Made by a program: the position numbers and the translations under genes. 64,000 bases of DNA, taken from NCBI RefSeq assembly GCF_016026235.1, contig NZ_CP065613.1; one strand, 5' to 3'. This document shows, in pieces, positions 52,669 through 55,405 of the stretch. Every line of letters begins with the position of its first letter. Within the stretch, counting starts at the first letter, position 1. The notes below the pieces were generated by a model, which saw nothing but the letters and a program-made list of their open reading frames with translations, searched no databases and was not told where the DNA came from. The DNA comes from Escherichia coli. GTDB taxonomy: Bacteria; Pseudomonadota; Gammaproteobacteria; Enterobacterales; Enterobacteriaceae.

Positions 52669-55405
52669 ATGATTACAAAAGATATAGTTGTTAGTGCATA
52701 TAATTGTCTTAAGTCATATGCTTACTACGAAAACTTAAATTTTTTCCTAAAGGAAGAAATCGCTCAATTTGAAGATTCTCTCTATGACGAAAAAATAGAA
52801 AAAGTGGTTGATTTTTTTGAAAATAATAATGACATTAACTTTAATGAGTGGCTAAATAAAATTGATGTTGAATTATTACCAAAAAAAATTGATAGCCATT
52901 TGGATATTGAGCAAACGAGCGGAGCTCTTTTTTTAAGTAATAATAAGACATCAGATGAATACAAAGTAGGTGCTGTAAATTATTTGATCGTTGCTCCTAT
53001 TGAAATATATTTAATAGAAACACTCTGGTCTATCTTTGTTGGTTCAATGCTAGATGACAAGTTTTCTGATTCGGTTTATGGAAATAGAATATCAAAAGTA
53101 ATAAAAAATATTCTAAGAATAGTTTCGATGCGCCAAAAAACTCCTCAAAAAATATCTTTGAAAGATACATTGATAATTATAATAAATGGCGAGATGGTGG
53201 TATCGATAAAGCGATAGAAGTTATAGAAAAAGAGCGAAATGATGTTGCAATTCTTTCTCTGGATCTTAAGGGTTTTTATTATAATATAGATATAGATTTT
53301 GATGCCATTGATAGAATTATTGACGAAGAACAATTAGAAGAAATTAAAGCTCTTTCTATGTTGTTGAATAGTAAATTGAGGTTGATGCATCAAAAATACA
53401 GAGAGAAAATATCTCCATATATTGGTGTGACACATTCAACTCCTTCATCAAAAGGCATTCCAATTGGATTTACTTCTTCTGCCATATTATCTAATTGGTA
53501 TTTAATGGGTTTTGATAAAGATATTAAATCAAAAATTAACCCATCGTACTACGGTCGCTATGTGGATGATATTCTTTTAGTTTTTTCATCCCCGGACATT
53601 AAAAAAGAAGATAAAGGTGAAGAAGTAATAAAATTCATAGAGCGAACCCTTAATGGATTCATTAAACAGGCAGCGAATGATGAGAAAGGCTTTACGTTGA
53701 CCGAGAGTTATCATGAATTACCAATTCAAAAGGATAAATTGATTTTTCATTATTTCAATAAAGATCATAGTTTGGCTGGTTTACAAGTCTTCAAACAAGA
53801 AATTGAGAACAGAAGCAGTGCATTTCGTTTTTTACCGGAAGAACATATATCTAGCGATCTCGATAAATTTGCTTATGATATATTACTTGATGGTTCGGCA
53901 AATAAATTTAGAAGTATTGTAGGTTTGGCAGAGAATGAAACTGAATTATCAAAATATATATCATCACATATCTTAGCTCATAGGCTTTGCAATCTTCCAT
54001 CGAATGAGAATACCTTAAAGCAAATAACGCTGTTTTTTAAAGGTGAAAATTCTCTAAGGTTCAGTCGGTTATGGGAGAAAGTTCTATCGTATACATTAAT
54101 TACAAGAAAATATGGATTTTCAATCGCCTTTTACAAACAAATTAAAGAATCAATTAATAAAATTAAGTGGAAGGAAGGTGATAGTGTTATATCTCCAAAA
54201 CTTAAAAATGGAATGCAGAAATACATTGATATTTCTCTTTGTTTGAATTTGGCTTTGTTAGATTTAAATGTCATTTTAGGTGATAAAGAGCCACAAAATA
54301 GAGCTTTGGAAGGTTTGAAATCTTTAATTAAACAGTCCGATGGAATGTCTGTTCTAATTGAAAGATTTAGAAGCAGTAATTTGATTCGTCATAATCTAGT
54401 GTCTTGGCCTTTAGCTAACTATACTAAATATAAAGGAGATCTTACTGAGGAGAATTTATACAGTAAGATGCATGGTATTCCACTTGATAATGATAAATTA
54501 AATAAAACCCCTAGATATATTCATGCTGATGAAAAGCAGCTTTTCGATTTGATTGATGCTCTTCATACAAGAAAACTACATAAGTTTACGCATGAAAATA
54601 AGCATCACTTAAAAAATTGCTCTGTTACTAAGATAAAAGATAATAAAGCTCTTGAAATAAAGGTAGGAATTGATGATAGAAGTGGTAATGACACAATAAA
54701 AGTTGCGTTGGCAAATATGAGAGTTGAACGTCGTAATATTGAAAGTGCTTGCAGAAAAGATCAGTCTCCAAATTTAAGTTATGAACGACAAAGAAACCTT
54801 TATCGTATTCTCAACTCGGCAACTGAAGAAAATGTGCAGATATTACTACTCCCTGAGTTATCAATTCCTGTGTCGTGGTTACCTTTTATGGCAGCACATT
54901 CAAGGAGAAAACAAATATCTTTGATTTTCGGATTAGAGCATTGGGTTATTAACGAACGCGCATATAATATTTTGGTTGAAATGCTGCCTTATACTTCAAA
55001 CTTTAAACACAAATCCAGTATGTTAGTTTTTCGAGTGAAAAATCATTACGCACCTAGTGAGATTACGATGCTGAATTCTTTAAGGTTAAAAATATCCTCT
55101 CCTAAACCTAGTAAACAACGGTATCATTTGATTAAGTGGAAAAACGTATCATTTTCTACATACAACTGTTTTGAACTGGCTAATATCGAGCATAGAGCAT
55201 TATTTCGTTCGCAGTTGGATATTTTATTTGCTTGCGTATGGAATCAAGATATAAATTATTATCAACATATCACTGAGTCAGCGACACGGGATTTACATTG
55301 TTATGTGGCTCAATCGAATACTTCGCATTATGGCGGTTCTTGTGTTCTACAACCGACCAGTAGCACTATTTCAAATAAGATATATGTAAAAGGTGGGGAA
55401 AACCA
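52669..55405 (+). CDS. reverse transcriptase fused to a C-terminal nitrilase-like (CN-hydrolase) domain, UG/Abi (DRT-like) defence-type RT; frame switches by -1 within 53088-53217 and the 3-prime end is cut by an IS10-like insertion
   Basis: Track ORFs 52669..53217 (frame 1) and 53358..55409 (frame 0, open back to 53088) form one gene. RT motif A AILSLDLKGFYYNID at 53247-53291, motif B KGIPIGFTSSAILSNWYLMGFD at about 53451-53516, motif C YGRYVDDILLVF (YVDD at 53559-53570). C-terminal region has nitrilase-like Glu/Lys/Cys candidates (LLLPELSIP about 54855, FRVKNHY about 55038, STYNCFELANIE about 55167). Strongly AT-rich. Confidence 0.75.

Follow-up and report, generated by a model that had tools for sequence, protein, structure and literature searches.

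We found that the change of reading frame within the reverse transcriptase (RT) gene of the window (the whole 64,000-nucleotide stretch of Escherichia coli DNA analysed here) is very probably an ordinary one-base deletion, A7 to A6, in a known anti-phage RT gene, leaving a pseudogene that is also truncated here by an insertion sequence (IS). The first-pass annotation had assigned the N-terminal part of the RT and its remainder to two different frames and had placed the switch within 53088–53217, and both assignments held. ORF 52669–53217 is in phase 1 and ends with a TAG at 53215–53217. ORF 53358–55409 is in phase 0; in that frame, stops at 53055 (TGA), 53067 (TGA) and 53085 (TAG) confine the open stretch to 53088 onwards. 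Codons 1–146 lie in the frame of the first ORF and the rest in the −1 frame. Besides these stop positions, invariant residues flanking the site locate the switch: the family-invariant G138, N139 and R140 are coded in the first frame and F164, Y167, Y171, W174, R175 and D176 in the second, and the switch must therefore fall between them. The parts of the gene on either side of the site are as follows.

52669–53108, plus strand: predicted RT–nitrilase pseudogene, part 1, codons 1–146 in the native frame, with the end inside the shortened A tract (translation; identical to residues 1–146 of the intact 958-residue protein).
53103–53108, plus strand: A6 tract, where one base has been deleted; intact alleles have A7 (direct comparison with the loci named below).
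53109–53217, plus strand: out-of-frame tail of ORF1, 36 aberrant codons (counted from 53107, in the tract) and TAG (translation; homologue comparison).
53109–55406, plus strand: predicted RT–nitrilase pseudogene, part 2, codons 148–913 in the −1 frame, with the RT domain and most of the nitrilase domain (readthrough with one A restored; Pfam; PADLOC).

With one A restored, the gene reads through 912 codons without a stop and differs from the intact protein by a single amino acid, M499I. The peptide given in the first-pass annotation for the gene with one A added (...RISKVIKKYSKNSFDAPKNSSKNIFERYIDNYNKWRDGGIDKAIEV...) agrees at every residue with the intact E. coli protein.

A single-base deletion in a homopolymer had been the more conservative of the readings offered for this site, and comparison with intact homologues, which had been proposed as a check, supported it at the exact tract named: these carry A7 (ATA AAA AAA TAT) where the window carries A6 (53103–53108). 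All three intact alleles that we read base by base (L001, L004 and L005) have A7, and the window, L002 and L003 have A6. Across the site, 30 of 32 complete E. coli genomes carrying the gene (approximately 99.8% identity) are one base longer, giving a 152-base match to a 151-base query, and the longer genomes encode the gene as one continuous 958-residue coding sequence. More than 100 homologues (955–1,040 residues, 42–88% identity) are single proteins covering at least 98% of the query. The codons at the site are always in frame; Cronobacter and the 88%-identity homologue share A7, and Serratia has ATA AAG AAA. Both complete genomes with A6 bear the NCBI PGAP label of a 'frameshifted' pseudogene.

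Gene callers list two proteins at this site, of 182 and 674–791 residues, as would be expected if the two ORFs were distinct genes, one for a small N-terminal protein and the other for an RT with its start at the ATG at 53358. There is virtually no likelihood of this. We rejected the two-gene reading because the homologues are single chains that carry both parts and in which invariant residues flank the site (throughout residues 10–176). Moreover, a product starting at Met231 would miss D199, which is invariant, as well as half of the residues matched by Pfam RVT_1 (171–328), and the last 36 residues of the 182-residue ORF (the ORF1 tail, NILRIVSMRQKTPQ...) are without a counterpart in the family homologues.

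The headline reading of the first-pass annotation, that the two frames are joined by programmed −1 ribosomal frameshifting, fared less well. Frameshifting at A_AAA_AAU (53103–53109) that yields a full-length RT–nitrilase is, in our judgement, exceedingly unlikely. The heptamer itself had been described correctly: it matches the X_XXY_YYZ pattern, has the right phase for ORF1 (53103 mod 3 = 0) and lies inside the overlap of the two frames. The downstream frame is stop-free for 766 codons, the A6 allele is common (32 contigs), and a downstream frame of 728 codons is intact in most A6 genomes, as a recoded functional gene would also show, the divergence there (4 substitutions) being too low to reveal selection. 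However, the arrangement is derived and not conserved, the gene being a single ORF in 30 of the 32 near-identical copies and in all diverged homologues examined. Second lesions also pile up in the A6 lineages, with IS1 in L003, ISEc60 in the window and loss of the gene beyond approximately nucleotide 1,350 in L014. A stimulatory hairpin or an internal Shine–Dalgarno sequence near the site had been suggested as a further check, and neither was found. Folding energies were −1.2 kcal/mol (z = +0.67) for the 51 nucleotides downstream of the heptamer and −8.3 kcal/mol (z = +1.13) for the 91 nucleotides downstream, neither of which is better than shuffled sequence. The Shine–Dalgarno-like tetramers GGAG, GAGG, AGGA and AAGG do not occur within 50 nucleotides upstream of the heptamer, and an Rfam scan of 52600–53600 at E ≤ 1 returned no match. 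Established bacterial −1 frameshift sites (dnaX and the IS3/IS911-type A_AAA_AAG) are likewise A-rich X_XXY_YYZ heptamers in the correct phase at the junction of overlapping frames, whereas the window heptamer ends in U rather than G, is without a hairpin, pseudoknot or upstream Shine–Dalgarno sequence, and stands in a two-frame arrangement where its relatives have a single ORF. In E. coli, heptamers without stimulators shift at 2.1–10 times a 0.055% background, that is, at up to approximately 0.5% (PMC4066793). Given the correct phase, a very low level of read-through may occur at A_AAA_AAU. AAAAAAT is a common sequence, with 30 occurrences in the window (24.4 expected), and five on the plus strand of the RT–nitrilase gene. 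The second A6 run reported at 53135–53140 is present, and there is a third in the same region, at 53147–53152.

Profile matches indicate that the gene is that of the UG5-large 'RT-nitrilase + 1TM' anti-phage system. PADLOC RT_UG5-nitrilase matched the intact protein over residues 1–958 of 958 (E = 0), and PADLOC RTasNitrilase matched residues 674–948 (E = 2.7e-34). Pfam RVT_1 covers residues 171–328, within which D199 and Y298-V299-D300-D301 are invariant in the homologue alignment, and PF00795 is recorded on three homologues (P0026, P0027 and P0031). UG5-large RT-nitrilase + 1TM acts against phages and is carried by P4-like satellites (Rousset et al. 2022, PMC9122126; Mestre et al. 2022, PMC9226505). 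The gene in the window belongs to the same family end to end, with the same partner and the same psu–int location in a P4-like element at tRNA-Leu; it differs from the intact system in the change from A7 to A6 at codon 147, in the ISEc60-like insertion after codon 913 and in the truncation of the satellite by IS1 at psu. The UG5 RT domain, the fused C-N hydrolase and the transmembrane partner are all present in the window, but an intact frame is not, the frame being broken at codon 147 and ending after codon 913. From these features, the window copy appears to be a pseudogene of the UG5-large RT-nitrilase family rather than a working member. DRT type 1, given as the UG1 RT-nitrilase (Gao et al. 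2020, as cited in PMC9226505), is similar in having a defence function and an RT that carries a C-N hydrolase at its C terminus, in some cases alongside a transmembrane partner. However, the RT clades differ: the best match here is to UG5, with Drt1a matching only partially (E = 3e-28), and the protein here, at 958 residues, is shorter than the 1,200–1,300 residues of DRT type 1.

A second lesion in the same gene, an IS insertion that truncates its 3′ end, had been missed by the first-pass annotation. The insertion and the surrounding satellite genes are as follows.

51073–51157, plus strand: tRNA-Leu (CAA), attachment site of the P4-like satellite (ARAGORN; tRNA-Leu annotated at the same place in related genomes).
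51321–52577, plus strand: P4-type tyrosine integrase, 418 residues as annotated in relatives (ORF list; tyrosine-type recombinase/integrase in L001–L005).
55406–56698, minus strand (transposase): ISEc60-like IS4-family insertion sequence (BLAST break against the intact allele; 99.5–100% identical to annotated ISEc60 copies).
56699–56848, plus strand: displaced 3′ end of the RT–nitrilase gene, the duplicated target followed by codons 914–958 and the stop (aligns to L001 6797–6946; intact tail CILTTT...ERGEK).
56845–57534, plus strand: partner gene, intact, encoding a 229-residue RT-associated transmembrane protein (PADLOC RTasTM, E = 5e-164; identical to the L001 product).
57736–58293, minus strand: psu (polarity suppression) of the P4-like satellite, 5′ end replaced at the IS1 junction (alignment with the intact Psu of L001).

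The first bases of the IS create a TGA stop at 55407–55409, and residues 914–958 of the nitrilase domain are lost to the insertion. The target duplication, GGGGAAAACCA, lies at 55395–55405 and 56699–56709, and its length is 10–11 bp in comparison with three other copies. In intact loci, the start of the partner gene overlaps the RT stop (ATGA). The P4-like satellite is integrated at tRNA-Leu, and the gene occupies its psu–int hotspot; the IS1 ORFs begin at 58335, and the same psu/IS1 layout is found in L003 and L004.

Considering its distribution, the A6 allele appears to be real and inherited, not a one-off error. The 182-residue product is encoded on 32 public contigs and the intact 958-residue protein on 201, and at least six independent assemblies at 0–2 SNPs from the window have A6. 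The assemblies with the window-type A6 allele, at 0–2 SNPs over 5.8 kb, were FDAARGOS_943, four further NCBI assemblies and several Logan assemblies built from public runs. A draft assembly (L015, GCA_900449985.1) is identical to the window here in both layout and sequence and is probably its source, so we did not treat it as independent. Long-read assemblies typically err by homopolymer indels, and the probable source is a draft, which would fit a sequencing or assembly error in the homopolymer of a genome that truly has A7. Nonetheless, such an error is very unlikely, since many independent assemblies share this A6 allele and two further lineages also have A6; on the strength of this sharing, we rejected a private sequencing error as the main explanation.

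A6 is thus found on three haplotype backgrounds in all, from which it follows that the tract would have slipped repeatedly. An A7 genome, AF14, is nested between two of these backgrounds in the SNP table, and a single origin of A6 was rejected on both grounds. The same tract therefore seems to have changed length at least three times on different haplotypes. Short-patch recombination may be an alternative to repeated origin, since no SNP between L001 positions 3945 and 4942 is informative.

We propose that one A was lost from the A7 run coding for Ile145-Lys146-Lys147 (ATA AAA AAA), with replication slippage as the most likely cause. Ribosomes starting at the native start codon would then leave the frame after Lys146 and terminate 36 codons on, giving a 182-residue fragment without any RT motif. 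The remaining 766 codons would lie in the −1 frame, in which the first start of their own, Met231, is past the invariant Asp199 (RT motif A region). The ISEc60-like element would later have removed the last 45 codons in this genome. The window copy has probably lost its function, judging from these lesions. Known homopolymer-slippage pseudogenes ('frameshifted' in NCBI PGAP) show the same one-base loss in a mononucleotide run, and in two RefSeq genomes this very allele already carries a pseudogene flag. Nothing material sets this ordinary pseudogene apart from these cases, the only extra being that its tract has changed repeatedly on different haplotypes.

Homopolymer runs of at least seven bases in the gene are T7, A8, T7 and A7, all four within the first 441 nucleotides. 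Every other such run also has ±1 alleles in public assemblies, some of which may be sequencing errors, and the change from A8 to A7 at nucleotide 213 occurs on two haplotypes. A W174* nonsense allele was also found in public assemblies. It is unlikely that the A7 tract and the other 5′ homopolymers act as a reversible on/off switch of a costly abortive-infection system, or that A6 is a 'savior' indel for which trace frameshifting compensates. Compensated indels have been described as a concept (PMC5009743), and such a switch would accommodate the at least three independent length changes at the A7/A6 tract (one possibly a reversion), the presence of the A8 to A7 change on two haplotypes and the ±1 alleles of the clustered 5′ runs. 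Runs of at least six bases in the E. coli allele also exceed a synonymous-codon shuffle (13 versus 7.4, P = 0.003). In contrast, runs of at least seven are not enriched by the same shuffle (4 versus 2.3, P = 0.14), and the Serratia and Cronobacter homologues show no tract enrichment (four homologues tested overall). The Serratia tract is interrupted by AAG. Irreversible lesions (W174*, three IS insertions and a deletion) inactivate the same gene and are equally common, which fits plain decay. We regard selected hypermutable tracts as unlikely, the signal being weak and confined to runs of at least six in the E. coli allele; the tracts are present because the gene has Lys-Lys and Phe-Phe dipeptides at 31% GC. 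A7 is short compared with classical contingency tracts. A contingency switch at T7, A8, T7 and A7, with the system repeatedly turned off and occasionally on again in E. coli lineages, and with A6 as the commonest 'off' state, possibly with trace expression by slippage at A_AAA_AAU, is decidedly unlikely. If the tract changes were reversible and selected, this would be a phase-variable defence system in E. coli and of real interest, which the present data do not favour.

For annotation, the two ORFs are best described as one frameshifted, IS-truncated pseudogene of a characterised defence system, not as a recoded gene, and the locus should not be counted as functional in defence-system inventories. 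The wider pattern also offers a modest illustration of the fast decay of satellite-borne defence genes in E. coli, in which this same gene has been inactivated repeatedly, by homopolymer slippage, by a nonsense mutation and by three different IS insertions.

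We found that an A7 tract in a known defence gene has lost one base, which accounts for the frame change in the window; the gene is here a pseudogene without a recoding signal. [quoted passage not shown] (PMC9122126); Mestre et al. (PMC9226505), who class it as UG5-large, report that it needs its TM partner. The intact version of the broken gene, from the related genome L001 (4070-6946; 958 aa, WP_000628823.1), matches PADLOC RT_UG5-nitrilase over its full length (residues 1-958 of 958, E=0) and RTasNitrilase over residues 674-948, with Pfam RVT_1 at residues 171-328. In the window the locus sits between a P4-type integrase and psu, and its RTasTM partner is identical to the partner at intact loci. 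In relatives with a complete satellite, ogr/delta and other P4-like genes come next.

Features of the locus and its surroundings (window positions)
51073-51157, tRNA-Leu(CAA)
51321-52577, P4-type integrase, adjoining tRNA-Leu(CAA)
52669..53217, + strand, ORF1, phase 1, stop TAG at 53215-53217
53103-53108, + strand, A6 run, followed by T
53358..55409, + strand, second-frame ORF, phase 0 (-1 relative to ORF1)
56845-57534, RTasTM partner, 229 aa, next gene after RT-nitrilase (PADLOC E=5e-164)
57736-58293, psu
59381-60205, MurR/RpiR regulator, directly after IS1 and an IS4-family fragment
60332-61927, PTS IIC gene, after the MurR/RpiR regulator

The first-pass annotation had described the two frames correctly: the second has stops at 53055, 53067 and 53085 and is free of stops from 53088, and ORF1 ends at the TAG. 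The AAAAAAT that it had singled out at 53103-53109 has the correct phase for an X_XXY_YYZ heptamer, and further A6 runs lie at 53135-53140, as it had also reported, and at 53147-53152. The heptamer as such is unremarkable, with 30 copies in the window against 24 expected, five of them on the coding strand of the RT-nitrilase gene.

Two explanations had been offered for the frame change, a programmed -1 frameshift and a single-base homopolymer deletion, and comparison within E. coli bears out the second. A search of 5,426 complete E. coli genomes found the gene in 32, with an identity of about 99.8%; a 151-base query across the site gave a 152-base match with one gap in 30 of them and an exact 151-base match in two. 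Base by base, L001, AF14 (L004) and L005 read GTA ATA AAA AAA TAT and the window, JNE170426 (L002) and FDAARGOS_943 (L003) read GTA ATA AAA AAT ATT; the tract in the window is thus one A shorter, A6 against the A7 of intact alleles. Both complete genomes with A6 (FDAARGOS_943 and JNE170426) carry the PGAP label "frameshifted" pseudogene, and the inspected A7 genomes have a single RNA-directed DNA polymerase CDS, broken in AF14 by IS1 only. Adding one A back to the window, which had been predicted to give a continuous sequence, yielded 912 codons with zero stops, and the restored gene differs from L001 by four bases and one residue (M499I).

The wider family also reads through the site. Among the 120 listed of 370 relatives from a protein search, E. 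coli and Klebsiella fragments aside, all are single proteins of 954-1057 aa; almost all of the 120 cover at least 98% of the query, at 42-88% identity, in Serratia, Cronobacter, Enterobacter, Dickeya, Pectobacterium, Aeromonas, Pantoea, Vibrio and other hosts. None of the relatives examined has a conserved two-part split. In an alignment of 20 relatives, G138, N139 and R140 are invariant, as are F164, Y167, Y171, W174, R175 and D176; these two groups fall in different frames of the window. The tract is in frame in every homologue read at the DNA level: ATA AAA AAA in an 88%-identity homologue and in Cronobacter, ATA AAG AAA in Serratia. RT-nitrilase and TM pairs of 78-88% identity adjoin P4-type integrases in Serratia, where Ogr/Delta is also nearby, and in an enterobacterial contig, so P4-like elements carry the system far outside E. 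coli as well. The neighbours of the Cronobacter copy are a primase-like gene and a TIR-domain gene.

A programmed -1 frameshift is not supported: no relative keeps the split, and neither a stimulatory hairpin nor an internal Shine-Dalgarno element was found near the site. Downstream of the heptamer, the 51-nt and 91-nt stretches have folding energies of -1.2 kcal/mol (z = +0.67) and -8.3 kcal/mol (z = +1.13), less stable in each case than shuffled controls, the 50 nt upstream contain no Shine-Dalgarno-like tetramer, and an Rfam scan of 52600-53600 gave no match at E ≤ 1. When Sharma et al. measured every heptamer in E. coli, frameshift-prone motifs without a stimulator reached only 2.1-10 times the background of 0.055%; the authors add that AAAAAAA is under-represented in E. 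coli genes and that transcriptional slippage or a high indel mutation rate may be the reason (PMC4066793). With no stimulator or Shine-Dalgarno element and such low rates, we would expect a trace of full-length product at most. Translation from Met231 (53358), the earliest ATG in the second frame, would give a product without the invariant D199 and with half of the RVT_1 match missing.

The A6 allele is recurrent. The exact 182-aa ORF1 product was found in 32 contigs (50 index blocks) and the exact intact 958-aa protein in 201. We retrieved 10 A6 loci for comparison. L015 (GCA_900449985.1) matches the window at 0 SNPs and in layout, IS included, and is probably not independent of it. FDAARGOS_943, L010, L011, L016, L017 and L018, all separate assemblies with 0-2 SNPs over 5.8 kb, all have A6, making a private sequencing error unlikely.

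Tract length by RT haplotype (from the SNP table)
L001-like haplotype: A7 in L001 and L005
L001-like haplotype: A6 in L013 and L014
Second haplotype, first branch: A6 in L002, L009 and L012
Second haplotype, AF14: A7 in L004
Second haplotype, window group: A6 in the window, L003, L010, L011 and L015-L018

AF14 shares with the window group one derived SNP, an IS1-truncated psu and the flanking genes. Short-patch recombination aside, tract length must therefore have changed independently at least three times, and one change may be a reversion. The deletion is passed on within a lineage and has recurred in several lineages; an IS insertion accompanies it in the window.

Across L001-L018, the integrase gene has two haplotypes, with about 60 clustered differing sites in its 5' two-thirds (L001 2622-3387, window about 51221-51986), whereas the adjoining RT gene has just 1-4, which suggests that the integrase end of the satellite is a recombinant mosaic. 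In the JNE170426 lineage (L002, L009 and L012), a frameshift also splits chromosomal ahr, which lies beside tRNA-Leu and about 1.9-2.8 kb upstream of the start of the RT gene, into products of 225 aa (221 in L012) and 116 aa; the split recurs in a second assembly, GCA_022833445.1, and is therefore probably real and no assembly error.

For the remaining long runs, we derived the shortened protein that each ±1 change would produce and searched for an identical sequence. Every one was found, and the changes were confirmed at the DNA level.

Length changes in homopolymers of the RT-nitrilase gene
T7 at nt 144: -1 in 2 contigs, +1 in 22
A8 at nt 213: -1 in 12 contigs (two haplotypes), +1 in 1
T7 at nt 260: -1 in 2 contigs, +1 in 2
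A7 at nt 435: -1 (allele of the window) in 32 contigs, +1 in 4

Judging from these assemblies, the A7 tract is not alone in varying, and some of the rarer indel alleles may be sequencing errors. A separate null allele, W174* (nt 521 G>A, TGG to TAG at an invariant Trp; L019 and L020), occurs in 40 contigs, about as often as A6, and IS1 interrupts the gene at different sites in FDAARGOS_943 and AF14. Some public assemblies (L023 and L024) have two indels in one RT gene, T7 to T8 at nt 144 with either A8 to A9 at nt 213 or A6 to A5 at nt 934, either because a dead gene continues to decay or because homopolymers were misread in sequencing. The gene (31.5% GC) has 13 mononucleotide runs of at least 6, against a mean of 7.4 after synonymous-codon shuffling (P = 0.003), and four of at least 7 against 2.3 expected (P = 0.14); the same shuffle gave no excess in the Serratia and Cronobacter homologues. 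The tracts therefore come largely from Lys-Lys and Phe-Phe dipeptides and AT-rich codon usage. The one reading with some novelty, in which the 5' tracts switch a costly system reversibly on and off, seems to us improbable given the irreversible lesions in the same gene, the inconsistent enrichment and the interrupted tract in Serratia.

Relative to the intact allele, the window also carries a 1.29-kb insertion at 55406-56698, flanked on both sides by duplicated GGGGAAAACCA and 99.5-100% identical to annotated ISEc60 (IS4-family) copies. Its first bases form the TGA that ends the second-frame ORF at 55409. Residues 914-958, among them the invariant L916, L925, R926, Q929, K941, P944, P945, G946 and R955, are displaced to 56710-56848, so even a perfect frameshift would give a truncated protein.

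At its psu end (window 57736-59300) the P4-like satellite is itself a remnant: an IS1 junction replaces the first 10 codons of psu, and IS1 and an IS4-family fragment stand in place of ogr/delta and later satellite genes. FDAARGOS_943 and AF14 share this layout. The ISEc60-like element shows a strong target preference, as all four copies examined (window 55395-56709, L025, L026 and L027) have a 10-11-bp flanking duplication fitting GG(G)nAAAnCC(C) (GGGGAAAACCA, GGGGAAAACCA, GGGTAAATCCC and GGGGGAAACCC). Its terminal inverted repeats are CTGAGGGATCCCCAGAAAA and TGAGGAATCCCCAGAAAAC, and 38 places in FDAARGOS_943 match it.
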